Origin: an uncultured Spirochaetales bacterium | Lineage (GTDB): Bacteria > Spirochaetota > Spirochaetia > SZUA-6 | Assembly: GCA_964596425.1 (NCBI GenBank) | Contig: CAZQTC010000007.1 | Coordinates: 10,294-74,293, forward strand | Length of the DNA: 64,000 bases | Reading direction: 5' to 3' | Shown: piece after piece, positions 2,719 to 28,095 of the stretch | Position numbering within the stretch: the first letter of the stretch is position 1 | How the letters are laid out: each line of letters opens with the position of its first letter | Notes under the pieces: generated by a model | The model's database searches: none | What the model was told of the DNA's origin: nothing | The model's input: the letters and a program-made list of their open reading frames with translations, nothing else | Position numbers and translations under genes: made by a program

Positions 2719-4212
2719 TTACCCCTTTACTCTGACAGAGTTAAACTTAAGTCGAAAAATTGAACCTTTATCAGGAGCGGATTGCACCTCGATACTTCCC
2801 CCGTGCTGTTCAACTATGCGTTTTACAATTGGCAGCCCCAATCCCGTACCGTTAGATTTAGTAGTATAAAAAGGCATAAAAATATGCTTTATCTCTCCCT
2901 CACCGAAACCAATTCCCTGATCCTCTACCTCGATAAAGAGATCGTCGTTAATCTCATAGGCCCTCACAGTAACCACACATCCCCTCTTAGAGGCCTCAAG
3001 AGCATTCATAATAAGATTATTCAATACCTGCTCTATTAAACGCTTATCCAGGTAGTACCTTCCCATATTGTCGCTTATCTCCACATTTATAGCAATTCCC
3101 GGGAAATTCCGCGAGGGGATACTCCTGAGAGAGTGATCTACTATCTCAGAAACAGAGCAACTCTCCCTCTCAATCTTAAGAGGCCTTGCAAAATCAAGAA
3201 AATTATTTATAGCAAGATTTAAAGAATCTATCTCATCTATTAATAATCGTGTTAATCTGTTGTAATCCTCCCTTCCGTTGGTAACCTCAAAATCATCTCT
3301 TAGCATCTCTGCCGTAACCTTCATTATACCAAGAGGATTTTTAATCTGATGAGCAACACCCGCCGCCATCTGTCTCACCGCGCCAATTCTTGAAGAGATA
3401 AGGAGCTTTTCTATACCTTCAAGATCGGTGTCTCTCCTGTCCAGGTTGGCTATACTTCTCCCGTTCTGAAGAATAACAAACCTATCGGCAACCTCAAAAA
3501 CCTCATGGGCATTATGTGTAACAAAAATTACGGAAATTCCTCTCCTCTTCGCTTTCAACACGAGGTTTAACACTTCATCCGTTTCGGATTCGGAGAGCGA
3601 AGCTGTCGGTTCATCGAGGATAAGTAGTTTTGTTCCAAAAAAACCTGCTCTTCCCACTGCAACCTTCTGCCTCTCGCCCCCGGATAGGGACTCTATCATC
3701 TTTACCACATTCCCATCGGTAAAACCATTTTCGTCGAGGAACTTCTCCGCCAAATTGTTCATCTTTTTAATATCCAGAAACTTAAACGGACCGATTCGCT
3801 TCTCAATCTCACGGCCCAAAAAAAAGTTTCTTGTAACATCAAGAAGGTCTATCAAGGCAAGGTCCTGATAAACCGTTTCAATTCCCACGCTTCTTGCATC
3901 CGCAGGACATTTAAAATTAACCCTCTTCCCTTCAAAAAATATTTTACCCCTTTCAGGTTTAACAAGACCGATAAGTGTCTTTATCAGAGTGGTTTTTCCC
4001 GCACCGTTGTCCCCCAGCAGCCCCACTATCTCACCCCGCCCAACACCGAAATTCACCCCGTCAAGAGCCACTACCTTTCCAAATCTAACGCTAATTCCTT
4101 CCATATAGACTAGAAAATTCTTGGCAGGAGTCGATCCAGAGGAAGAATGATCCCTACTATTTATCTGTTCGGAGGAAAATTCCATCACCGCGTATTTTAG
4201 CGCGGATTTCAA
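2719..4212 (-). CDS. Soluble chimeric sensor kinase: an N-terminal ABC-transporter ATPase domain fused to HisKA + HATPase_c
   Basis: Residues ~35-270 form a complete ABC nucleotide-binding domain: Walker A GDNGAGKTT, Q-loop VYQD, signature LSGGERQKV, Walker B LLILDEPT, H-loop VTHN. This is followed directly by the H-box AHQIKNPLGI (HisKA) and the catalytic domain N-box (NLIMNALEA), G1 DQGIGF and G2 GTGLGLPIVK. No TM segments are present. The annotated start is TTG; an in-frame ATG lies 9 codons downstream. Confidence 0.8.
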   Translation of the reverse strand: MKSALKYAVMEFSSEQINSRDHSSSGSTPAKNFLVYMEGISVRFGKVVALDGVNFGVGRGEIVGLLGDNGAGKTTLIKTLIGLVKPERGKIFFEGKRVNFKCPADARSVGIETVYQDLALIDLLDVTRNFFLGREIEKRIGPFKFLDIKKMNNLAEKFLDENGFTDGNVVKMIESLSGGERQKVAVGRAGFFGTKLLILDEPTASLSESETDEVLNLVLKAKRRGISVIFVTHNAHEVFEVADRFVILQNGRSIANLDRRDTDLEGIEKLLISSRIGAVRQMAAGVAHQIKNPLGIMKVTAEMLRDDFEVTNGREDYNRLTRLLIDEIDSLNLAINNFLDFARPLKIERESCSVSEIVDHSLRSIPSRNFPGIAINVEISDNMGRYYLDKRLIEQVLNNLIMNALEASKRGCVVTVRAYEINDDLFIEVEDQGIGFGEGEIKHIFMPFYTTKSNGTGLGLPIVKRIVEQHGGSIEVQSAPDKGSIFRLKFNSVRVKG

Positions 4213-5044: not shown

Positions 5045-6970
5045 CTACACAATATAATTACCTCTTTTCATATAATAAGTATGCAGGAGCTTATGGCTCA
5101 ATTCGCTACACGGTCCCTCAGTAAGAAAATCACGGTAAATTTGCACTATGTGAGGATTCTCGTGGGATTTTCTATACTCAAGTGTTTCTTCTTCGGCATA
5201 GATAGCCTCTGCACGTTTGCGCCTAATTTCAGGAGAAGTAGGAATCGGCTGTCCCCCACCTCCAAGGCACCCACCAGGACAGGCCATAAATTCGATAAAG
5301 TGACATTCACTAAACTTACCTCCCCGTTTTATATCATCCAGAACTACCCGGGCGTTGGCCGTTCCGTGTACCACGGCTACCTTTAAAGTGATTCCCCTAA
5401 GAAACTCCCAACTTTCAAAGTGACTTTTAAGAAGTGAGGGAACAGAACCCACTTCGGTAATTGGAAACTCCGCATACTTTATTCCCTCAAAACCCCGCAC
5501 CGGTTCTATTTTCATATTAGGGAATATCTCCTCTACCCTTTTACCAGTAATCAGTTCTATCACAGTCCTAAGAGCCGCCTCCATTACACCCCCGGTAGCC
5601 CCAAAGATAAGTCCAGCCCCAGAAGCCTCCCCAAAAGGCTCATCAAAATTCGATTTGGGTAAAGTAGGCAAATTCAAACCCATCTCTTTTATCATTCCGG
5701 CAAGCTCGCGAGTGGTAACAGCATAATCAACATCTTTAAATCCAGAGTCCTGCATCTCAGGTCTGTTACACTCGTACTTCTTAGCCGTACATGGCATAAG
5801 TGCTACAGTTACAATATCCTCAGGATTTATACCATGGAGCTTCGAATAGTAGGTTTTAATTATTGCTCCAAACATCTGTTGCGGACTCTTAGCACTAGAA
5901 AGATTTTCAATAAACTCAGGATAAAAATACTCACAAAACTTAACCCATCCCGGGGAACAAGAGGTGAACTGCGGAAACCGCACAGACACATCTCCATCTA
6001 CCAATAATTTTTTTAACCTGAGCAATAGTTCGGTTCCCTCTTCGATTATCGTTAAATCAGCTGTAAAATTCGTATCAAAAACCCTATCAAAACCACACCT
6101 ACGGAGCGCCGTATTAAGCTGACGGGTCACCGACGTCCCCGGCGGACATCCAAACTCCTCACCTATAGCAGCCCTTGGACTGGGAGCTGTCTGTATTACC
6201 ACATGTTTAGTAGGATCATCTATAGCCCTCCATACATCATCACTCGAATCATTTTCATGGAGTGCCCCCGTAGGACAATGAACTATACACTGACCACAAT
6301 TAATGCATACAACATCCGCAAGAGGTTTTTCCATAAAACTGCTAATCCTTAACTCATTCCCTCTGCCAACGATTCCCAATGCTCCTACACCCTGTAACTC
6401 CACACACGCCCGAACACAACGCCGGCATTGGATACACTTGTTCATATCTCTTACAATTGAATAACTTGATCTATCTAACCTATAACGCGGTATCTCGGAC
6501 TTACCAAATCTGAAAAAATCTACCCCATACTCCTTCGCAAGACTCTGAAGCTCACAGTTATTATTCTTAACACAGGTAGAACAACTACCATAATGCTCAG
6601 ATAGCAGAAGATCTAAAATGTGCCTTCTCGCTTTCCTTATCCGCGCTGAATAGGTCTTAACCTTTATGGGAGAGGTTATAGAGTACGAACAAGAGGCCTG
6701 CAAATTTCGCTCTCCCTCTATTTCTACAATACATATACGACACACCCCCGCTACGCACAGATCTTCATGATGACACAGCGTTGGAATCTGCACACCTACA
6801 CGTCTTGCAGCCTCCAACACGGTCGTACCAAAAGGCACCCTTACCTCTATGCCATCTATAGATACCCGCACGGTCCCACCAATTCCACCCGATTGCTCTT
6901 TACTCAAATTACTTCCCTGGGAAAAAGTAGAGACCATGCCGGAATCATTCGAAGAATTATATTTACCCAT
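5045..6970 (-). CDS. hydA: [FeFe]-hydrogenase catalytic subunit HydA (multidomain, group A3-like)
   Basis: N-terminal 2Fe-2S ferredoxin-like region plus two 4Fe-4S motifs (CIQCRRCVRAC, CINCGQCIVHCP). H-cluster motifs L1 TSCSPGW, L2 MPCTAKKYE and L3 EFMACPGGCLGGGGQP. The ORF track starts at a TTG at 6988. An ATG at 6968-6970, preceded by GAGGAGG-N9, is the more likely start. Confidence 0.9.
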   Translation of the reverse strand: MGKYNSSNDSGMVSTFSQGSNLSKEQSGGIGGTVRVSIDGIEVRVPFGTTVLEAARRVGVQIPTLCHHEDLCVAGVCRICIVEIEGERNLQASCSYSITSPIKVKTYSARIRKARRHILDLLLSEHYGSCSTCVKNNNCELQSLAKEYGVDFFRFGKSEIPRYRLDRSSYSIVRDMNKCIQCRRCVRACVELQGVGALGIVGRGNELRISSFMEKPLADVVCINCGQCIVHCPTGALHENDSSDDVWRAIDDPTKHVVIQTAPSPRAAIGEEFGCPPGTSVTRQLNTALRRCGFDRVFDTNFTADLTIIEEGTELLLRLKKLLVDGDVSVRFPQFTSCSPGWVKFCEYFYPEFIENLSSAKSPQQMFGAIIKTYYSKLHGINPEDIVTVALMPCTAKKYECNRPEMQDSGFKDVDYAVTTRELAGMIKEMGLNLPTLPKSNFDEPFGEASGAGLIFGATGGVMEAALRTVIELITGKRVEEIFPNMKIEPVRGFEGIKYAEFPITEVGSVPSLLKSHFESWEFLRGITLKVAVVHGTANARVVLDDIKRGGKFSECHFIEFMACPGGCLGGGGQPIPTSPEIRRKRAEAIYAEEETLEYRKSHENPHIVQIYRDFLTEGPCSELSHKLLHTYYMKRGNYIV

Positions 6971-6984
6971 CAAACTTATCCTCC

Positions 6985-8175
6985 TCAAATCTGTTTAGCA
7001 ACTACCCTACCGAGTATCTCATCTCTAAAATAGTTAACAATAGAAAGAAATGCATTCGGACTAGACTGACCAAGACCACACTTACAGGTACATTGCATCG
7101 TCCTGCCCAACTCTATAAGCTCCTCTAAATACGCAATGGAACATTTGCCTTCTTTGAGCAATCTAACACCCTCTAGCAATTTAACATTTCCCAACCGACA
7201 AGGGACACACTGCCCGCAAGACTCTTCACAGAAAAACTCAAGAAAATTCTCAGCCACGCTAAGCATATCTCTATCAGCTCCAAAAACAATAATGGAACCG
7301 CCCGTTGGGATGTCTTCATAAGCCAAAGTAGATGAAAATTCCTCTCTAGGCACACACCGACCCGAGGCTCCACCAACCTGAACTGCTTTCGCATCTTCTT
7401 TCCCAACCTCCCTCAATAACTCGCTAATAGTAATACCCATGGGAAACTCATACACCCCGGGTTTCTCTACATCCCCAGAAACACTAAAAAGCTTGGTTCC
7501 AGTTGATCCCTCCGTGCCAAATTTTTTGAACCATTCTACCCCCTTTTCAAGAAGCACAGAAACTGTGGCAAATGTCTCCACATTATTAACTATGGTAGGC
7601 ATTCCTCTAAAACCGACATTCACGGGAAAAGGAGGTTTATTTCTCGGCTCTCCCCGTTTCCCCTCAAGAGATTCTATAAGAGCAGTTTCTTCTCCACATA
7701 CATATGCCCCGGATCCCAATCTTATACCAATGTCAAAATCAAAACCATCTATGCCCATTATACCACTTCCAAGGAATCCCTCTTTGCGCCTTTTCTCCAA
7801 TACACACTCAAGATGCCGCAACAAATAAGTGTACTCGCCTCGAAGATACACAATCCCTTCACTTGCACCTATAGCAAAAGCCCCAATGGTCATACCCTCA
7901 AAAACCATATCCGCATAATCACTAAGAAGCACCCTATCCTTAAAGGTTCCCGGTTCACCTTCGTCCGCATTACATATTACATATTTCTTCTCTCCGCTCG
8001 CCGCAGCAGCTAAATTCCACTTAATCCCGGTAGGAAATCCGGCTCCACCCCTTCCCTTTAACTTACTCTCCCTTACCTCTTCAACAGTTCTATGTCTTCC
8101 CACCTTTAATGCCTTTTTCAAACCACTTTCAGGCTCGTGAACACCAAAGATTACAGGTCCTGTCTTCCCCTTCAT
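6985..8175 (-). CDS. hydB: NuoF-like NADH-binding flavoprotein subunit of the hydrogenase (HydB), minimal 396-aa form
   Basis: GRGGAGFPTGIKW NADH/FMN-binding motif. C-terminal 4Fe-4S cysteine motif (CGQCVPCRLG...). AGGAGG RBS 10 nt upstream of the ATG. It lacks the extra N- and C-terminal ferredoxin domains of the 600-aa HydB of Thermotoga-type enzymes. Confidence 0.85.
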   Translation of the reverse strand: MKGKTGPVIFGVHEPESGLKKALKVGRHRTVEEVRESKLKGRGGAGFPTGIKWNLAAAASGEKKYVICNADEGEPGTFKDRVLLSDYADMVFEGMTIGAFAIGASEGIVYLRGEYTYLLRHLECVLEKRRKEGFLGSGIMGIDGFDFDIGIRLGSGAYVCGEETALIESLEGKRGEPRNKPPFPVNVGFRGMPTIVNNVETFATVSVLLEKGVEWFKKFGTEGSTGTKLFSVSGDVEKPGVYEFPMGITISELLREVGKEDAKAVQVGGASGRCVPREEFSSTLAYEDIPTGGSIIVFGADRDMLSVAENFLEFFCEESCGQCVPCRLGNVKLLEGVRLLKEGKCSIAYLEELIELGRTMQCTCKCGLGQSSPNAFLSIVNYFRDEILGRVVAKQI

Positions 8176-8177
8176 AC

Positions 8178-8693
8178 CTAATCCGCCTCCTTTCCGTCGT
8201 ATGCAGGATCAACAGAGTTTCCTCTGCATTCCTCTATAATTTCCCTTACCCTGCCAGGGGTCAGCCTGGTGTACACCTTATCGTTAATCAACATTGCCGG
8301 TCCTTGATCGCACATTCCAAGACAGTTAACCCACTCCAGCGAAAACTCGCCATCAGGCGTGGTTTCTCCGAAGGATATACCAAGCTCATTCTCAAGCTGC
8401 CTAGCCACCCTACTCTTACCTGCCATATCACAGGCTATGGTTCGACATAACCGAATAACATAGCGGCCTTTAAGTTTTACATCAAGAAAAGAATAGAAGG
8501 AGACCACACCGGACACCTCAACAGGAGAAATGTTAAAATGCCCGGCAAGCTCCTGTATGGCAAAATCCGGGACATGTCGATATTTCCTCTGTATCTCCTG
8601 CAACACGGGTAACAATCCATCCCTTTTGGAACCAAACTTTCTTACCCAGGTTTTAATATCAGCGCTTAACTTTTCCCTTTCACATAACAACAT
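8178..8693 (-). CDS. hydC: NuoE-like thioredoxin-fold 2Fe-2S subunit of the hydrogenase (HydC)
   Basis: Typical NuoE/HoxE segments (LLPVLQEIQRKYRHVPDFAIQELAGHFNISPVEVSGVVSFYSF, and the CRTIACDMAG / CLGMCDQGPAM cysteine pairs). It is the first gene of the hydCBA operon. Confidence 0.85.
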   Translation of the reverse strand: MLLCEREKLSADIKTWVRKFGSKRDGLLPVLQEIQRKYRHVPDFAIQELAGHFNISPVEVSGVVSFYSFLDVKLKGRYVIRLCRTIACDMAGKSRVARQLENELGISFGETTPDGEFSLEWVNCLGMCDQGPAMLINDKVYTRLTPGRVREIIEECRGNSVDPAYDGKEAD

Positions 8694-17216: not shown

Positions 17217-17750
17217 TTGACTAGCAAGATGTTTTCTTCAATTACTACAGCAATCAGTAACTATGCCCGGGTAATCTTTGCCGTACTCGGTCTTGTGAGT
17301 CTCTACCCCAATGTAGAAATTAACAACGTACGTGCGATAGAAAAACGAGGAGCAATTTATGCACAATTCACAACCAGATCCCTGATTAACGAGTACTTAC
17401 TACAGATAATAGATTCGGGTATCGATATATACTACAGCGTAGAGGCAACAACGTACCTGACAACCAAAGGAAGGGAACGCGAAATATACAGAAATATCCT
17501 TATAAAAAGAATCTCTCACAGGGGGAATAGCTACATCTTGGACAATGAAGGTTTCAGATCCTGGAAAAAACTTCTAACCGTACTGAACACCAATTCCATT
17601 CTTATCCTCCCCGCCGAAAAGAGAGTGCGGGGGGGAACAATTAAAACAACAATAGTGCTAAAAATATTCTCCGATGCTGTTCCTGATCTTATGAACTTAT
17701 GGGGCAATAAGCCCAATATCGTGTTAAACTATAGGATAAATGAGAGTTAG
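17217..17750 (+). CDS. Small membrane-anchored protein of unknown function (DUF4390-like by size and context)
   Basis: One N-terminal TM (VIFAVLGLVSLY). About 177 aa. It overlaps the downstream kinase gene by 11 bp. The family assignment is tentative and from memory of TCS-adjacent DUF4390 genes. Confidence 0.35.
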   Translation: MTSKMFSSITTAISNYARVIFAVLGLVSLYPNVEINNVRAIEKRGAIYAQFTTRSLINEYLLQIIDSGIDIYYSVEATTYLTTKGREREIYRNILIKRISHRGNSYILDNEGFRSWKKLLTVLNTNSILILPAEKRVRGGTIKTTIVLKIFSDAVPDLMNLWGNKPNIVLNYRINES

Positions 17751-18969
17751 GTTTATCGTCGTACTATTTTTATCAATGCTGCTCATATTAAGTTCTTCCA
17801 TCATAATTACCTACAGGGCAATCGGAAAAACTCAGGAGAGTGTAAAAGGAAACCTCTTAAACAATCTCCTCTCAAGATACAAAGACAACCCGGAGATGAA
17901 AAAATCCATAGAGATATACCTTGCCTTTTCCCAAAAAAGAGCCGTGGAAATAACGAGGGATTCTCTCACCTACTATTCAATTGTACTATTTATAATGGGT
18001 ATTCTATTTGTCTTCTCTATCTTTGCCATAACCCGACCGATAAAACGGCTTTCTAACAAGGTAAATCTAATCCTGCACGACAACAAAACAATGAACGAAA
18101 TTTTACGGGGCAGGTTTAAACCAAAGGGTTCGTACGAGGTGAAACAACTGTACATAGCATTCGACAAACTGGTAAGGGATATAAAAGAGTACGAGGAAAT
18201 AGTGGGTGACAGAGAACGCTACAGAGGATGGAAAGAGATAGCAAGAATCATCGTTCACGAGATTAATAACCTAATCTCACCTATAGAAACCTACTCCGGC
18301 TATCTTCTCGAGACACTCCCCCAATCCGTATCCCACGTAACCCCCAAGGTAAGAGCAATTCTATCAAAGATAGAAGAGATAAGAGAAACCCTGGGGAAAT
18401 TTAGAGACCTTGCCCATCTACCAGAACCCCGGATTAGAGAGGTTAATCTATACAAACTTACCCACGACATAGTGGAAGAGTTTAAGGGGGTAGAGTTTGC
18501 ACCGGCGTTCGCATCATCAAAAGAATCCTTTCCCTATGTAGAGGAAAATGATTTTATAGTCAACACAGACCCGCTCCTATTTGGCGAAATTCTTAGAAAT
18601 ATAGTAAAAAACGCGGTAGAAAGCACCTTCCCTTCCACAACGAGCAATTCATTCGAAGGTTCGTCAGGGGAAAGAGAAAAGGAATCCCCCCGTGTAACAG
18701 TAACAATACAGAAAAAGGAGAACACAGTGAGGCTAGAGGTAACTGACAACGGACCCGGGATTCCGGAAAATATCAGAGACAAGATATTCACTCCCGGATT
18801 TTCCACAAAGGCGGGCAATATAGGAATAGGCCTCTCTCTGGTAAAGAGCCTATCCGAACAGTTAGGAATAGAGATAAAACTAGAGAGCAATCGGGGTGAG
18901 GGGACAAAATTCCTTATAGACTTGCAAACATCGATTTCCCAAAAACAAAAAAAACAGAGGGAAATATGA
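17740..18969 (+). CDS. Membrane sensor histidine kinase (2 TM, small periplasmic loop, HisKA + HATPase_c)
   Basis: Two TM segments flank a ~45-aa loop. H-box IVHEINNLISPI. N-box NIVKNAVEST. G1 DNGPGIP. G2 GIGLSLVKSL. Confidence 0.85.
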   Translation: MRVRFIVVLFLSMLLILSSSIIITYRAIGKTQESVKGNLLNNLLSRYKDNPEMKKSIEIYLAFSQKRAVEITRDSLTYYSIVLFIMGILFVFSIFAITRPIKRLSNKVNLILHDNKTMNEILRGRFKPKGSYEVKQLYIAFDKLVRDIKEYEEIVGDRERYRGWKEIARIIVHEINNLISPIETYSGYLLETLPQSVSHVTPKVRAILSKIEEIRETLGKFRDLAHLPEPRIREVNLYKLTHDIVEEFKGVEFAPAFASSKESFPYVEENDFIVNTDPLLFGEILRNIVKNAVESTFPSTTSNSFEGSSGEREKESPRVTVTIQKKENTVRLEVTDNGPGIPENIRDKIFTPGFSTKAGNIGIGLSLVKSLSEQLGIEIKLESNRGEGTKFLIDLQTSISQKQKKQREI

Positions 18970-20369
18970 GAATATTAATCGTAGACGACAACAGAGATGT
19001 AATAACCAGTATAGACAACGTCTTATCGGAGGACACTATCATAGGGGCAGGTTCCTTCAAAGAAACAGAGAAAATACTCAGAGAATACGGTGAAAAGAAT
19101 ATAGACGTCGCAATAATAGACGTGGTATTAAAAAACGAGGATGGTATCGATATACTAAAACATATAAGGGAAAACTATCCGTCCATACAATGTGTAATGA
19201 TATCCGGTTACTCCACCGTGGAAAAAGCGGTGGAATCCATAAAACTAGGTGCCTTCGATTTCCTCGAAAAACCCATATCCTATCAGAAACTCAAAGTAAC
19301 TCTAAAAAATGCCATAGAGAGAAAAAAATATACACGCCTCCTCGTACGTGAGGTAGATAGATACGCACTGATAGGGGAATCGCCCACAATAAAAAGGATA
19401 AACTCCCTGATAGAAAGAGCTGCCACCACGGACTTACCCGTTTTGATAGTAGGAGAAAGCGGAACGGGAAAGGAGAACGTAGCCCACCTTATACACCTAA
19501 AGAGCTCTCGCTTTGCAAATGAAATGGTAGAGCTAAACTGTGCATCAATTCCGGAGAGCCTATTCGAGAGCGAGTTATTCGGTTACGAAAAGGGCGCCTT
19601 TACAGGTGCAATCGGCAAAAGAACGGGCAAACTGGAACAGGCCAATGGGGGTACGTTATTTCTCGACGAGATAGGAGAGCTTCCCCTTTCGCAACAGGCA
19701 AAGCTTTTAAGAGTACTGGAAACAAAAAGTTTTACCCGCCTGGGAGGAGAAAAGAGTATAACAACCGATTTCAGGCTGATAAGTGCCACGAACAGGGACC
19801 TGGGGGAAATGGTAAAAGAGGGAGATTTTAGAGAAGACCTCTTCTTTAGGATAGGGGTAATTCTAATAGAAATCCCCCCTCTAAGGGAGAGAAAAGAAGA
19901 TATAGCACCACTGGCCCGTCACTTTCTCAACGAAATCGCAGAGAGCGAGAGGGTAAAAATTACCCTCTCGAAAGATGCCATAGAGCTTTTAAAATCCATA
20001 CCACTAAGGGGTAATGCAAGACAACTCAAAAACATCATACAGAGAGCCTTCGTACTATCAAACTCAGATCGCCACAACCGAGAGATAACAAAAGAGTGTC
20101 TTCTGGCAATTCTCTCACCCACAGAGAAACCCTCCCCGACAAGCTTGGGTTTTTCCACCACTGCGGACTCCCAAACTTATCGTGATATATTCGAAACCAC
20201 AATGCCCATATCCGAGGCAAAAAAGTTACTAGAAAAAAAATATATAGAAACCCAACTAGGCCTCCACGGGGGAAACATATCAAAAACAGCAATAGCACTC
20301 GGGATACTCCCCGGAAACCTTATGCGAAAGATGAAAAGTTTAGGGATCAAAATAAAACATAGTCATTAA
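18966..20369 (+). CDS. Sigma-54-dependent response regulator (NtrC/NtrX-like)
   Basis: ATGA overlap with the kinase gene. Receiver domain (MRILIVDDN...IIDVVL). AAA+ core [15 protein letters not shown] with GAFTGA. C-terminal HTH ([24 protein letters not shown]). Confidence 0.9.
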
Positions 20370-20707
20370 CCTATAGCAACAGAGCCTGTCTCTCCGCTCC
20401 TTATCCTTATACACTCTGTCAGGGGGAGAATAAAAATCTTACCATCCCCTATCTTATTTGTTCTCGCTCCCTTTATTATCGCGTTAACCGTAGGTTCAAC
20501 AAAATTCTCATTTACGGCTATCTCAATTCTCACCTTCTTTAAAAGATTAACCTCTACTGCAACCCCTCTGTATGATTCGGTATACCCCATCTGTTGTCCG
20601 CATCCCAATGCGTTAGTAATCGACATCTTCTTAACATCCGCCTTATAGAGCTCTTGCTTTACAGCATTAAGCTTATGAGGCTGAATATAAGCAATTATGA
20701 GTCTCAT
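20366..20707 (-). CDS. glnK: Nitrogen regulatory protein P-II (GlnK-type)
   Basis: Full-length P-II match ([20 protein letters not shown]...T-loop GYTESYRGV...B-loop [10 protein letters not shown]). Its stop codon overlaps the stop codon of the convergent regulator gene within TTAA at 20366-20369. Confidence 0.9.
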
Positions 20708-20727
20708 CTGTAAAAAACCTCCTCAAT

Positions 20728-21978
20728 TCACATGTTCTGGAATATCTGAAATCCACTATATGCCTCGAGTCCATGCTCATCGATGTCCAACCCTCTGAGT
20801 TCTTCATCTTCATGGACTCTAAGCCCCACGGTGAGTTTTATAGAGTAGAAGAGAAGCGTCGTGGTAAGGATTACCCATACAAATACAGAAAATGCACCGA
20901 GAGCCTGAATTCCAAGCTGCCTAAATCCACCACCGAAAAAGAGTCCCTTCATACCAGGTGTATTTGCAAACAACCCAACGGCAAGGGTTCCCCACACACC
21001 ACACACACCGTGAACAGAAACAGCACCAACAGGGTCATCTATATGGAAGATCTTATCTATTATTTCGATAGAGATTACTACAAGAAAACCCGCAACAACC
21101 CCTATAACCACAGCATCAAATGGAGTAACAACTGCACATCCCGCTGTTATACCGACAAGACCTGCAAGCACACCGTTTAGCGACATGCTGGGATCTGGTT
21201 TACCGTAGAGAAACCAGGAGAGAATCATAGCGGACAAAGCACCCGCCGAAGCTGCAATAGTAGTTGTAACTATTATAAGGGGAATTCTAGAATCAAAGGC
21301 GCTTAACGTACTTCCACCGTTAAAACCAAACCATCCAAACCAGAGAATAAAGACCCCCAGAGCCGCCAGGGGCATGTTATGACCTCTAATCGCCTTTACC
21401 TCCACCTTTCCGTTTAACCTTACATACTTACCTATTCTAGGCCCAAGAACCACAGCCCCCATCAGAGCTGCCCATCCACCTGTTGAATGCACAACCGTAC
21501 TCCCTGCAAAATCAAAAAACCCAAGCTTATTCAGCCAGCCATCACCAGACCATATCCAGTGACCCAACACCGGATAGATAAAACCCGAGATAAATACACT
21601 GTAGATTAAATATGAAACAAATCTGGTTCTCTCCGACATAGCGCCGGAAACGATGGTAGCGGCAGCTGCAGCAAAGACAACCTGAAATATCCAATTTTTC
21701 AATGTAGCATGAGTGGCACTGGAAAATAGAAACCCCTTTGTCCCAATAAAACCACTGACAGAACTGTTAGGAGAATGCCCATACATTATCCCCCACCCAA
21801 CAAACCAGAAAACTATCGCCCCTATGGAAAAATCCAGAAGATTTTTCATGATTATATTATTTGCATTCTTTGCCCTGGTCAGACCCGTTTCCACCATCGC
21901 AAAACCAGCCTGCATAAAGAAGACCAGGGCTGCAGCTATTATTACCCAGAATGTATTAACCGCCTCTGTTACACTCAT
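20728..21978 (-). CDS. amtB: Ammonium transporter Amt
   Basis: Canonical Amt N-terminus and TM pattern (MSVTEAVNTFWVIIAAALVFFMQAGFAMVETG). The true start is probably the second ATG (21978). The first ATG (21993) is followed by GGGAGGAG, which serves as the RBS for the second. Confidence 0.9.
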   Translation of the reverse strand: MSVTEAVNTFWVIIAAALVFFMQAGFAMVETGLTRAKNANNIIMKNLLDFSIGAIVFWFVGWGIMYGHSPNSSVSGFIGTKGFLFSSATHATLKNWIFQVVFAAAAATIVSGAMSERTRFVSYLIYSVFISGFIYPVLGHWIWSGDGWLNKLGFFDFAGSTVVHSTGGWAALMGAVVLGPRIGKYVRLNGKVEVKAIRGHNMPLAALGVFILWFGWFGFNGGSTLSAFDSRIPLIIVTTTIAASAGALSAMILSWFLYGKPDPSMSLNGVLAGLVGITAGCAVVTPFDAVVIGVVAGFLVVISIEIIDKIFHIDDPVGAVSVHGVCGVWGTLAVGLFANTPGMKGLFFGGGFRQLGIQALGAFSVFVWVILTTTLLFYSIKLTVGLRVHEDEELRGLDIDEHGLEAYSGFQIFQNM

Positions 21979-22038
21979 GTTGACTCCTCCCATAGATTTT
22001 ATAAATTTTTAGCCTTAACCTTAATTTTCCCATTTAAC

Positions 22039-25305: not shown

Positions 25306-25734
25306 ATGACTGTAAAAACTAAACCCTTTAGAGATCAACACGACAAAATTCTCGAAATCACCAGGAAAATCGCCAGGTTTCTCATAGACAACGAAGAACT
25401 AAGCGCAAATTCAAATCATGTAAACAAACTACTTGCTGATCTTTCGCGTAACCTCCAGATCCACTTAACTCTGGAAGACACGGCACTCTATCCTATCATC
25501 TGTATAACCGACGATGCAGAGATGAGAGAATTAGCTGAAAAATATAAAACAGAGATGGGCGACATAAAAAAACTCTGCGTAGAGTATTTCGAAAAATGGC
25601 AAAGCAGCTTTAAGATAAAAAGCAATCCCATGGGATTCATAAAAGAAACCAATACTCTATTCAATTTACTAAACAAAAGAATAGATCTGGAGAACAACGA
25701 ACTCTACAAACGAATAGACGAGTTATTTAAATAA
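25306..25734 (+). CDS. Small hemerythrin-like (HHE cation-binding-like) protein
   Basis: DQHDKILEI resembles the iD.qHk.L hemerythrin N-terminal motif. IHLTLEDTALYP resembles the H..EE....yP second motif. Later His ligands are not evident, so the assignment is tentative. Confidence 0.35.
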   Translation: MTVKTKPFRDQHDKILEITRKIARFLIDNEELSANSNHVNKLLADLSRNLQIHLTLEDTALYPIICITDDAEMRELAEKYKTEMGDIKKLCVEYFEKWQSSFKIKSNPMGFIKETNTLFNLLNKRIDLENNELYKRIDELFK

Positions 25735-25757
25735 GCTCAAACGGGGGTTTACCATCC

Positions 25758-27506
25758 ATGAAACGAAAGTATATCTGGCCACTATACGGCTTTATAGCAG
25801 GAACTCTTTTTTCCTCCCTACAGCTAACCATGATCCTCAAACAATTAAAAATCACGCAAGGGGTTAATATTTTCGCATTTTGGGAGAGACCGGTAGGACC
25901 TATAGTATTAGCAGTTACCTTTTTCATAATAGGGTGGTATCAGGACAAATTAATAAATCAGAGAAAACAGGTTGAACAAAAGAATAAAGAACTTCAAAAA
26001 GCAATGATAGACCAGGCTATGCAGCTCGGGGAAGAACTAAACCGAACAATGGATCAATTAACCAGATATACCGACCAGCTCGATAAGATCGTAAACAATA
26101 TAAACATTGGAATATGCGTAATCAACAACGAGTACAATATTGAAGAGGGATTTAACAATTCACTAATTGATATCTTCGGAGACAAGGATTACCTCCATAA
26201 CTCTATATTTGATACAATATTTAACACAATCAATGAAAACCAAAAGAAGGAAATGAAAGATTTCCTGGAACAGTGCTTCTCCAATGCATTGGCATCGGAT
26301 GACATGCTTAGCGAGGCCAATCCCCTCGAAGAGTTTACATATCTATACCTAGAAAAAGGCAAGGCCATACCTAAAACAATCGTAACAAAGATTGTGCGTT
26401 TCAAGTCGACAGAGGACGAAATAGAAAAAGTGATGTTTCTCTTTGAAGACGTTACCACAGAAAGAGAATTAAAAAAACTGATAAAACAAAAAGAAGAAGA
26501 ATACAACAGGAGCTACGACACAATAGTCTCCCTGCTTAGACATGACACTCAGTTAACAAAACAATTTATCAACGAATTACGAGAAAATATGCAAAGGCTA
26601 AAGACAAGTCTGGATGACCTTAAACAAAACGAAAAAAATATCGAATTAATAAACGACATTATAGCAATAGTACACTCTATCAAAGGAGAGGCTTTTTCAC
26701 TTGACTTCGAAAAACTGGCCGAGGAGGCCTCTCAATTTGAGAGGTTCCTCAAGGAAAATCGAAACAGAACTCTGGATTTAGAGATGAATCTGGGGATACT
26801 CAACCACTACGAAAAACTTAGAAACCAGAGTGCCTCCTACGACAGGATAATAGAAAATATGGCAAACTTTATTTACGGGGAAAAAACAGTAGAGAAACTA
26901 CTCGGAGTGGAAACCCGAGATCGGACAAAACACCAAAACACAAGAGATGATACACTCTCCCTATTGGAGAAGGAACTCCGGATTATAACAGAAAAAACCG
27001 CTAAAGAGAAAGAAAAATCAGTCACTCTTAATTTTGAACACGAGGTTGAAAAAATTGACCCTAAAATCTACAAACCTTTAAAGGAAATTCTGTTACATTT
27101 AATCAGAAACTCAATAGACCACGGAATTGAACATCCCGAGATCAGAAAACAAAAGGGTAAAGATGAATCGGGCAATATCAAAATCACGGTAAAAAGGATA
27201 GACGACAATCTTGTGATAGAGTATAGTGATGACGGAGCTGGACTGGATATAAATCGCATAAAAGAAAAGGCTATAAAAGAAAAAATTGTAAGCGAAGAAG
27301 AAGCCGAAAAAATGAGCAAAGCGGAAATTATTAAACTAATATTCAAAGAGGGATTCACCACAAGTAATAATGCGGATATGATCTCGGGGACAGGCGCAGG
27401 TATGTCAATAGTAAAGAAAAATGTAATAACCCAACTGAAGGGAAAACTAAGTATTTTCAACAGAGGAGGAGAGGGATTCAAACTAAAAATTAATATTCCA
27501 AGTTAA
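25758..27506 (+). CDS. Membrane-anchored CheA-like histidine kinase (TM + sensor region + Hpt/P1 + dimerization linker + CheA-type P4 ATPase), no CheW-like P5 domain
   Basis: Two N-terminal TM helices. The Hpt motif IVHSIKGEAFSL has the phospho-acceptor His. The P4 N-box HLIRNSIDHGIE is CheA-specific. G1 DDGAGLD. G2 GTGAGMSIVK. The protein ends 20 aa after G2, so no P5 is present. Confidence 0.7.
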   Translation: MKRKYIWPLYGFIAGTLFSSLQLTMILKQLKITQGVNIFAFWERPVGPIVLAVTFFIIGWYQDKLINQRKQVEQKNKELQKAMIDQAMQLGEELNRTMDQLTRYTDQLDKIVNNINIGICVINNEYNIEEGFNNSLIDIFGDKDYLHNSIFDTIFNTINENQKKEMKDFLEQCFSNALASDDMLSEANPLEEFTYLYLEKGKAIPKTIVTKIVRFKSTEDEIEKVMFLFEDVTTERELKKLIKQKEEEYNRSYDTIVSLLRHDTQLTKQFINELRENMQRLKTSLDDLKQNEKNIELINDIIAIVHSIKGEAFSLDFEKLAEEASQFERFLKENRNRTLDLEMNLGILNHYEKLRNQSASYDRIIENMANFIYGEKTVEKLLGVETRDRTKHQNTRDDTLSLLEKELRIITEKTAKEKEKSVTLNFEHEVEKIDPKIYKPLKEILLHLIRNSIDHGIEHPEIRKQKGKDESGNIKITVKRIDDNLVIEYSDDGAGLDINRIKEKAIKEKIVSEEEAEKMSKAEIIKLIFKEGFTTSNNADMISGTGAGMSIVKKNVITQLKGKLSIFNRGGEGFKLKINIPS

Positions 27507-27517
27507 AGGGGTCCAAA

Positions 27518-27883
27518 TTGAAGGTACTGGTTGTTGATGACTCATCGATAACACGCAGGGTACTAAAAAACATCCTCAAAGAAAAAAACATTCCGGAGAG
27601 TAGTATTATCGACGCAGCCGACGGGGAAACAGCTCTAAAAATCCTAAATACCCAAAACATAGACCTGTTACTCGTAGACTGGAACATGCCAAAACTGAAT
27701 GGACTCGAACTGGTTAAAATTGTGAGACAAATAGATAAGTACAAAAAATTACCAATTATCATGATCACCTCAGAAGCAGCAAAATACAATGTACTCGAGG
27801 CCGTCAAAGCGGGAGTTTCCGATTATATCGTAAAACCTATAACCGGAATCACGGTGATGAAGAAATTAGATCAATACTTATAG
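27518..27883 (+). CDS. cheY: CheY-like single-domain response regulator
   Basis: MKVLVVDDSSITRRVLKN... LLLVDWNMPKLNGLEL ... K in the AVKAGVSDYIVKP segment. This is the classic CheY signature. Confidence 0.85.
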   Translation: MKVLVVDDSSITRRVLKNILKEKNIPESSIIDAADGETALKILNTQNIDLLLVDWNMPKLNGLELVKIVRQIDKYKKLPIIMITSEAAKYNVLEAVKAGVSDYIVKPITGITVMKKLDQYL

Positions 27884-27984: not shown

Positions 27985-28018
27985 AATAAAAAAGCCCCTC
28001 CACATACAGGAAGGGCTT
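27985..28018 (-). terminator. Rho-independent terminator following tRNA-Phe (minus strand)
   Basis: Minus-strand read AAAGCCCTTCC-TGTATGT-GGAGGGGCTTTTTTATTT: a GC-rich stem with a U-tract. It may also terminate cheY transcription from the other side. Confidence 0.6.
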
Positions 28019-28022
28019 TGTG

Positions 28023-28095
<73 letters not shown>

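Follow-up and report, generated by a model that had tools for sequence, protein, structure and literature searches.

Can a kinase built on the catalytic pair of CheA work when the parts that tie CheA to chemoreceptor arrays are missing? This question is raised by three adjacent genes in a stretch of 64,000 nucleotides (nt), here called the window, from an uncultured Spirochaetales bacterium (assembly GCA_964596425.1, contig CAZQTC010000007.1, positions 10,294 to 74,293 of the forward strand). The genes encode a hemerythrin-like protein (HrL), a sensor kinase and a CheY-type response regulator. Judged from sequence comparison and gene order, the kinase would be of the class III histidine kinase (HKIII) type, in this case from Spirochaetota, with a membrane anchor and with di-iron O2-sensor proteins as recurrent partners, and the window would hold a reduced copy of this system. 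We think it probable, with some reserve, that the module is a self-contained two-component pathway, in which an array-independent kinase phosphorylates CheY without chemoreceptors and the phosphorylated CheY (CheY-P) acts on the flagellar switch. An earlier note on this DNA had proposed such a trio at 25306-27883, and the three open reading frames (ORFs) were recovered at these coordinates, all on the plus strand, with 142, 582 and 121 amino acids (aa). The features are as follows (TM, transmembrane).

25306..25734, plus strand: HrL, 142 aa, a degenerate member of the hemerythrin/HHE family (Pfam PF01814, ortholog alignments)
25758..27506, plus strand: sensor kinase, 582 aa, with TM hairpin, signalling helix, PAS, Hpt, linker and CheA-type P4, and no P2, P3 or P5
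25764..25952, plus strand: membrane hairpin of the kinase, aa 3-65, with hydrophobic cores at aa 9-27 and 40-58 (hydropathy; AlphaFold helices 3-29 and 47 onward)
25953..26099, plus strand: long helix extending TM2 as far as aa 114, putatively a signalling helix of the coiled-coil type (within a single AlphaFold helix, aa 47-114)
26109..26450, plus strand: cytoplasmic PAS domain, aa 118-231 (AlphaFold models, Foldseek)
26547..26858, plus strand: Hpt (P1-like) four-helix bundle, aa 264-367 (Pfam, CheA P1 alignment, AlphaFold)
26859..26954, plus strand: linker, aa 368-399, at the place of CheA P2/P3; unconserved, indel-rich, core predicted disordered
26955..27503, plus strand: CheA-type P4 ATPase, aa 400-582, ending at its last beta-strand
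27518..27883, plus strand: CheY-type single-domain response regulator, 121 aa (Pfam, NCBIfam and PDB matches)
28022..28095, minus strand: tRNA-Phe(GAA) (ARAGORN), at the downstream end of the operon, where relatives carry cheX

Domain content of the kinase

Searches against Pfam matched Hpt (PF01627) at aa 266-355 (2.5e-8) and HATPase_c at aa 441-581 (4.6e-15) of the kinase, and the CheA models of NCBIfam matched over aa 412-581 only (2.3e-47). The best PDB matches were CheA P4 structures (1.2e-28), and the Hpt matched CheA P1. The P4 domain is 35-45% identical to those of CheAs and has all nucleotide-binding boxes: N (H447, N451, H455), G1 (D491, G493, G495), F (F529, F533) and G2 (G544, G546, G548). 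The phospho-acceptor of the Hpt, H306 (codon 26673-26675), aligns together with K309 and E328 to H48, K51 and E70 of CheA, and the motifs HSIKGEA, HLIRNSIDHGIE, DDGAG and SGTGAGMSIV were all found. In an alignment of 22 full-length homologs, H306, K309, E328 and all of the listed ATP-binding boxes were invariant. The C terminus of the kinase (...KINIPS) is the last strand of P4, and all 22 homologs terminate 0-5 aa past this domain.

No match to CheW, H-kinase_dim, P2 or HisKA was found in a Pfam scan of the kinase. Profile-profile alignment (hhalign) to 20 canonical CheAs covered only aa 415-582 (probability 100%) and did not reach P3; the motif at the P3-P4 junction, RMVP...FxRFPR, which is invariant in the CheAs, had no counterpart in the kinase. 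Hidden Markov models (HMMs) of P3 and P5 built from 93 CheAs gave no match in the six frames of the window, the best E being 1.8. The core of the linker (aa 378-395) had a predicted local distance difference test (pLDDT) value below 50 in the AlphaFold model and formed no helical hairpin, and the helix at aa 400-417 corresponds to the first helix of CheA P4, not to a part of P3. A P3 remnant was considered and rejected, since a local P3 HMM gave weak matches only (E = 0.003-2 in a 22-sequence database) and hhalign stopped at P4.

The same protein sequence was found, identical, on independently assembled contigs. Because the profile comparison and the six-frame HMMs were negative and independent contigs agree, we take P2, P3 and P5 to be truly missing, and not removed by a truncation artefact. 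A misassembled, frameshifted or wrongly called gene could make an ordinary CheA seem truncated, or the protein might be a common HisKA kinase to which an Hpt has been added. The one reason to suspect this is a prior one, namely that CheA-type P4 domains mostly belong to complete CheAs; of the 21,627 cluster representatives matching at E <= 1e-30 in our exhaustive search, the majority appear to be CheAs. However, cheY begins 11 nt after the stop codon of the kinase gene, 22 of 22 homologs stop at the same point, and neither P5 or P3 in any frame nor a HisKA domain was detected, which together with the identical assemblies already refutes these explanations and leaves them a negligible probability. 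Lacking both P3 and P5, the kinase as read from its sequence would be unable to join a CheW/MCP array (MCP, methyl-accepting chemotaxis protein).

Much of this had been anticipated by the earlier note. Its Hpt with an HSIKG phospho-histidine, its CheA-type rather than classical HisKA ATPase, recognised by the N-box HLIRNSIDHGIE and by GTGAGMSIV, the lack of P5 and P2, and the inability to use a CheW-like domain for coupling to receptor arrays were all borne out. The P3-like hairpin between Hpt and P4 for which it had suggested looking was not present.

The N-terminal half was read differently. By hydropathy, aa 9-27 and 40-58 are the sole TM candidates of the kinase, with an outer loop of about 12 aa between them. 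Because basic residues lie at both cytoplasmic ends (positive-inside rule), the predicted topology is a hairpin with both termini inside and almost no external loop. The AlphaFold model of the whole kinase (pLDDT 77.9) consists of the TM1 helix (3-29), a helix at 47-114, an alpha/beta domain (118-231), a linker helix (233-260), the Hpt bundle (264-367) and P4 (400-581). When the region after TM2 was modelled alone (pLDDT 81.5), it took a PAS fold, and Foldseek matched it in the PDB to the PAS domains of WalK, DosP, LOV, NifL and Aer2 (prob 1.0, identity 10-19%). Some of these PAS domains bind heme, FMN or FAD and others no ligand, and at such identity no cofactor is assignable. Nine PAS residues (C120, N133, F140, G141, Y145, K163, N188, P189 and D231) were invariant in the 22-homolog alignment. 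According to these models, the sensor of the kinase is a cytoplasmic PAS domain, and the long helix after TM2 is likely the dimer interface. Thus, of two TM helices and a sensor region of about 200 aa that had been suggested earlier, both TM segments stand, but the sensor lies after TM2 in the cytoplasm and not between the two, and direct sensing through the membrane region is at odds with so short a loop.

The operon, HrL and the related loci

The HrL-kinase-cheY block looks like a three-gene operon, because the genes are co-directional and are bounded upstream by a divergent ogt-like gene and downstream by the tRNA-Phe gene and then a convergent MacB/FtsX ABC transporter. HrL and the kinase are separated by 23 nt, and the kinase and cheY by 11 nt. 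The start codon of cheY is TTG, with an AAAGGGG ribosome-binding site in front. A strong GC, terminator-like hairpin lies at 27991-28019, between cheY and the tRNA gene, which lies 138 nt past the cheY stop. The spacer upstream of the operon is 263 nt long, and no sigma-70-like site was found within it; a promoter and terminator scan was uninformative, its counts being not above those of shuffled sequence.

A family of full-length kinases was found around this protein. It is small (about 22 clusters at 90% identity, with about 19 representatives at E < 1e-110 in the exhaustive search) and comes almost wholly from metagenome-assembled genomes (MAGs) of Spirochaetota. We compared the window with 16 related loci (L004-L013, L035-L040). 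CheY was found downstream of the kinase in all 16, directly in 13 of them and after an ODP (oxygen-binding diiron protein) and a 91-aa gene in three. CheX (PF13690, 6e-21 to 5e-24) followed CheY in 14 of the 16; in L040 no more than a fragment of it (77 aa) is left, and none was present at L035 or in the 64-kb window. The accessory genes were distributed as follows.

Canonical hemerythrin and HrL beside the kinase: L004, L006, L007, L036, L039
HrL alone beside the kinase: window, L035, L005
Canonical hemerythrin alone beside the kinase: L008, L013
ODP and a conserved 91-aa protein, between kinase and CheY: L009, L037, L040
Conserved 185-aa protein: directly upstream of the kinase in L010, L012, L038; in L011, on the other strand at a distance of about 4 kb

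The canonical hemerythrins of seven related loci carry the full ligand set H...HxxxE...HxxxH...HxxxxD. For the ODP homologs, the best PDB match was "Oxygen-binding diiron protein" (8e-28). Because relatives' operons encode canonical hemerythrin or ODP, the wider Spirochaetota kinase family probably reports O2, iron or redox status. By this comparison, the fuller ancestral unit would have comprised one or more accessory sensors, the kinase, CheY and CheX, and its fullest order would be hemerythrin, HrL, kinase, CheY, CheX.

HrL itself is a different matter. It belongs to PF01814 (aa 8-136, 1.4e-10, 42.2 bits vs a curated cutoff of 25.3). A homolog search with its single sequence returned only itself and one relative, so that its orthologs were drawn from the related kinase loci. 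Among seven orthologs, H12, H53, E57, E83, R125, E129 and D138 were invariant. However, only H12 and H53xxxE57 of the canonical ligands are kept, helices 3 and 4 are free of histidine, and the full di-iron set is not present in any of the seven. In a profile search, the closest solved relative was the hemerythrin domain of YtfE, a marginal match (E = 0.04). Of the ligands of YtfE, H129, E133 and E208 are aligned with H53, E57 and E129 of HrL; the position of H160 is not conserved, and that of H204 is the invariant R125. Because the histidines of helices 3 and 4 are gone and one is replaced by an invariant arginine, HrL is predicted to be incapable of forming a canonical di-iron O2 site.

HrL could still sense a metal, O2 or redox state through a non-canonical, carboxylate-rich site formed by H12, H53, E57, E83, E129 and D138, in which case the input model of the earlier note would hold for the window as written. 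The six potential ligands are invariant, the family match exceeds its curated cutoff, in 8 of the 17 loci the gene immediately precedes that of the kinase, and in three of these (window, L035, L005) it has been kept with no canonical hemerythrin beside it. We regard this as unlikely, since just two conserved histidines are left, HrL has no counterpart of YtfE H160 or H204 (an invariant arginine stands in for H204), and in five loci HrL adjoins a canonical hemerythrin, which would be expected of an adaptor sooner than of a redundant sensor. In the reduced operon, the role of an adaptor or regulator is more probable for HrL than that of a di-iron sensor which binds O2. The upstream gene had been called hemerythrin-like in the earlier note and taken as an O2 or iron input; its family assignment was right, but its canonical metal ligands are incomplete, and the idea of O2 or iron input survives only at the level of the family, for which it is plausible by homology to the fuller operons.

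The window and L035, its nearest relative, have the same reduced yet conserved three-gene form (HrL, kinase, CheY), and L035 keeps all catalytic residues; neither a tRNA-Phe gene nor cheX was found there. The kinases of the two are 71.5% identical and the CheYs 89%. A six-frame search of the 64-kb window found neither CheX nor a canonical hemerythrin. With two of the five ancestral genes (hemerythrin and cheX) missing and a tRNA gene at the position expected for cheX, the module of the window might be a decaying remnant which is no longer a working pathway. This is quite improbable, as all three ORFs are intact, every catalytic residue is invariant, and the three-gene arrangement has been kept in L035 at 71.5-89% protein identity.

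Several further observations concern the accessory genes. Neither the 185-aa nor the 91-aa protein had a match in Pfam, NCBIfam or PDB. The ~185-aa protein has the motif MEVKGxALASIPxFV..FGKxGF..W, sits in those family loci which lack hemerythrin or ODP, and could represent one more type of accessory sensor (L010:5635-5991, L012:5425-5988, L038:4422-4979, L014:5416-5979, L011:1178-1828 on the minus strand). The 91-aa gene always lies after ODP and before CheY (L037:7624-7899, L040:5946-6221, L009 at about 8300-8590). In another Spirochaetota locus (L014:5992-7452), an N-terminal TM-PAS-(weak Hpt) module is 33% identical to the family over aa 1-330, with HD_5 replacing P4 and the same 185-aa gene upstream; in this protein, the sensor module of the family seems to feed another output. 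The complete hemerythrin, HrL, kinase, CheY, CheX operon of L007 (JANTGS010000166.1, 3.8 kb) is labelled as a MAG of a "Flavobacteriaceae bacterium". Because the contig is short and all other close family members are from Spirochaetota, it is probably mis-binned.

Other genes flank the related operons. After CheX, proteins of about 1280 aa with PAS-GAF-GGDEF-EAL architecture were found in three loci (L010:8776-12654, L011:8766-12602, L038:7829-11647), and a Ras/Roc-like small GTPase in two (L009:9496-10077 and L037:8871-10587, where an HD_5 protein then follows). A FliG paralog is next to the operon in L040 (7034-8407). These variable genes may point to connections with the motor, polarity and cyclic di-GMP (c-di-GMP). 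A HisKA kinase with an OmpR-type regulator was located near the operon in L036 and L039. One subclade has partner-switching-type genes by the operon, namely an RsbW-like GHKL kinase, a SiaC/STAS-like protein and a SpoIIE-type PP2C phosphatase (L010:4394-5278 on the minus strand, L011:2095-5822, L038:2-3716 on the minus strand).

As for the surroundings of the trio in the window, about 50 of its 56 predicted genes were scanned (the six unscanned ORFs include ABC-transporter-like genes), and besides the trio no che, MCP, flagellar (fla) or pil gene was found among them. The proposal that the trio is a stand-alone module holds within this census. With genes for a HydABC-type FeFe hydrogenase and a number of ferredoxin-type genes, the content of the window fits an anaerobic source organism. 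Two other kinases were encountered. A 497-aa protein (2719-4212, minus strand) has the unusual architecture of an ABC-transporter ATPase domain (aa 50-204, 1.8e-28) fused to HisKA and HATPase_c; its gene comes after those of a CBS protein and the HydABC-type hydrogenase (5045-8693) and immediately before that of a sigma-54 response regulator (1274-2698). In the region of 17740-20369 (plus strand) and 20366-21993 (minus strand), a histidine kinase with HATPase_c and no detectable HisKA is paired with a sigma-54 response regulator; the pair is convergent with glnB (P-II) and amtB and is probably a nitrogen-regulation module with an atypical kinase.

CheY and the proposed pathway

The stand-alone receiver downstream of the kinase matched Response_reg in Pfam at aa 3-116 (8.9e-27). 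CheY was its best NCBIfam match (1.3e-30), yet below the equivalog cutoff of that model. All of its top 49 PDB matches were chains of CheY or CheY homologs, including CheYs of V. cholerae, H. pylori and E. coli (1e-29 to 1e-26), and it is about 45% identical to the motor-type CheY 4hns of V. cholerae. The D-D-D-T-K quintet is complete (D7, D8, the acceptor D54 with codon 27677-27679, T84 and K106), as is the equivalent of Y106 (Y103), and the DWNMP motif is present. It is thus a bona fide CheY-type receiver, in agreement with the earlier note, which had called it CheY. Because CheY is 89% identical between the window and L035 vs 71.5% for the kinase, strong constraint on it is indicated. CheY-P would most likely bind the flagellar switch (FliM/FliN), because this CheY closely resembles the motor-binding ones.

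The pathway that we favour could then run as follows. The membrane-tethered kinase would dimerise through the helix after TM2 and through PAS. A signal would be taken up by the cytoplasmic PAS domain, directly or from the co-encoded HrL, and would alter the readiness of P4 to phosphorylate H306 on the Hpt, which is tethered by a flexible linker of about 30 aa. The phosphoryl group may pass from H306 to D54 of the adjacent CheY, and CheY-P would act on the flagellar switch. In the operons of relatives, CheX phosphatase would serve as the reset enzyme, and the accessory protein (canonical hemerythrin, ODP or the 185-aa protein) would be swappable.

The output may instead be other than flagellar, with the CheY-like protein controlling type IV pili, c-di-GMP turnover or a polarity GTPase, or acting as a sink that draws phosphate from the main chemotaxis pathway. 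HKIII kinases are reportedly linked to pilT, and control of type IV pili rather than flagella is said to have been proposed for them. The link to pilT is repeated in a paper that cites the HKIII work (PMC6501615). Moreover, PAS-GAF-GGDEF-EAL genes follow CheX in three loci and Ras-like GTPases in two, with an HD_5 (HD-GYP-like) protein in one of these, and such neighbours suggest other outputs. These points weigh against a flagellar target, and three more weigh against other parts of the proposed pathway: the AlphaFold kinase model is a monomer with a low predicted template modelling score (pTM, 0.52), dimerisation without P3 being assumed; HrL is without three of the five histidine ligands; and the window has no canonical hemerythrin, ODP or CheX, so that the argument for O2 sensing is one of homology to the fuller operons. 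We nevertheless consider a non-flagellar output rather unlikely. The CheY of the window is closest to motor-binding CheYs and keeps Y103, T84, K106 and DWNMP, a FliG paralog adjoins the operon in L040, and no pil gene was found among the scanned genes of the window or in any flank examined. Spirochaetes, in addition, swim by means of periplasmic flagella.

A bolder version of the flagellar pathway is put forward here only tentatively. Anaerobic spirochaetes may carry an array-independent O2/iron escape circuit, in which interchangeable stand-alone di-iron sensors (hemerythrin or ODP) or the 185-aa protein dock on the PAS domain of a kinase without P3 and P5, sometimes via a ligand-deficient hemerythrin adaptor. 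The sensors would directly gate how a motor-type CheY becomes phosphorylated, and CheX would reset it. If this is true, HrL of the window would be a pseudo-hemerythrin coupling protein, in the role that CheW and MCPs have for CheA. The Spirochaetota kinase family makes a well-defined, testable case, with a small operon, a clear substrate in CheY and a clear reset enzyme in CheX, and the accessory proteins of known chemistry in relatives (hemerythrin, ODP) point to O2 or iron as the signal. Should this be confirmed, the family would provide strict anaerobes with a minimal, reconstitutable path that leads from the sensing of O2 to phosphorylated CheY, and the way in which P4 phosphorylates P1 without P3-mediated dimerisation could be tested directly.

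Comparison with known systems

CheA is usually seen as a sensorless kinase which works only inside arrays of receptors and CheW. According to Berry, Andrianova & Zhulin 2023 (PMC10542144), it is defined by a P3-P4-P5 core plus P1 and has no input domain, and the CheW domain (P5) was present in 100% of 13,673 surveyed CheAs. The kinase of the window resembles CheA in its homologous P1 with the H-K-E set, in its homologous P4, and presumably in having CheY as substrate. It differs in lacking P3, the RMVP...FxRFPR junction motif, P5 and P2, and in having a TM anchor and a PAS sensor. Because three defining features of CheA fail (P3, P5 and the absence of an input domain of its own), this kinase, on its domain content, is not a CheA. 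It also differs from class I (HisKA-type) kinases, as no DHp/HisKA domain was found in it by Pfam and its acceptor is the Hpt bundle.

HKIII kinases are said to combine sensory domains with an Hpt and a CheA-like ATPase and to have neither a dimerisation domain nor a CheW domain. Their partners are reportedly CheX and a single-domain response regulator, and they often occur where the genome has no che genes. The architecture of our kinase fits this description: it has an N-terminal sensory domain (PAS), an Hpt acceptor and a CheA-like ATPase, no dimerisation or CheW domain, and a single-domain response regulator as partner; CheX accompanies 14 of the 16 relatives, and the operon lies away from che genes. 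It is different in being anchored to the membrane by a TM hairpin and in belonging to Spirochaetota; the operons include hemerythrin, HrL, ODP or the 185-aa accessory gene, no soluble chemoreceptor is nearby, and the window has no adjacent cheX. The likeness is one of domain and operon features and not of phylogenetic placement in the published HKIII clade, and PMC6501615 echoes the reported HKIII features only in part. With this proviso, the description of the kinase in the earlier note as an unrecognised, atypical CheA is better replaced by HKIII, on account of its architecture and its CheY/CheX partnership.

Proteins with PAS, Hpt and P4 which end at P4 were numerous in the exhaustive search, and their N-terminal sensors varied. 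Among P5-less examples, HAMP was found in P0033, P0057 and a Clostridiaceae protein, 7TMR-DISM in Oligoflexus tunisiensis and Reg_prop/Y_Y_Y in Calditrichia, and one from Breznakiella homolactica is known by its annotation only ("ATP-binding protein"). In a crude neighbour-joining tree of P4 domains, the Spirochaetota family was monophyletic, and the sampled P5-less kinases did not form one clade, with deep branches unresolved; no conclusion on a single origin of P5-less kinases can be drawn from this tree. Kinases with only P1 and P4 and a sensor of their own show that the catalytic pair of CheA is open to quite different regulation, and to our knowledge none of them has been studied biochemically.

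Among the accessory proteins, the role of ODP as O2 sensor in the chemotaxis of Treponema denticola is established (Muok et al. 2019, via PMC7666581 and PMC7319448), and ODP has been recruited to several signalling pathways (PMC7666581; PMC7319448). As with ODP-TDE2496 of T. denticola, the operons of three relatives (L009, L037, L040) encode a di-iron O2-binding protein beside chemotaxis-type genes in an anaerobic spirochaete. However, the T. denticola protein acts through a soluble MCP and a canonical array CheA, whereas in these three loci ODP is paired with a P5-less kinase without any MCP, and the window has no ODP. AtcS of T. denticola was considered as a known relative and dropped, its abstract being silent on the architecture of the kinase; AtcS reportedly belongs to an unrelated LytTR-linked system.

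Hemerythrin modules serve similar purposes elsewhere. The chemoreceptor DcrH of Desulfovibrio vulgaris and Bhr-DGC of Vibrio cholerae contain a fused hemerythrin with the full ligand set, which provides an O2 or redox input. They are comparable to the present operons in that, in anaerobes or microaerophiles, a hemerythrin module feeds into a pathway of motility or of second messengers; in the kinase operons, however, the partners are separate proteins, and HrL of the window is ligand-deficient. HrL shares with YtfE/RIC the first half of the ligand set (H...HxxxE) and the equivalent of E208, but the match is marginal, as given above, and the equivalents of H160 and H204 as well as the N-terminal ScdA domain are missing. 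Our literature search found no paper joining hemerythrin, CheX and a P5-less CheA-type kinase. The architecture of a kinase with only P1 and P4 has already been described, and what looks new is its repeated pairing, in the relatives of this operon, with oxygen-binding di-iron proteins.

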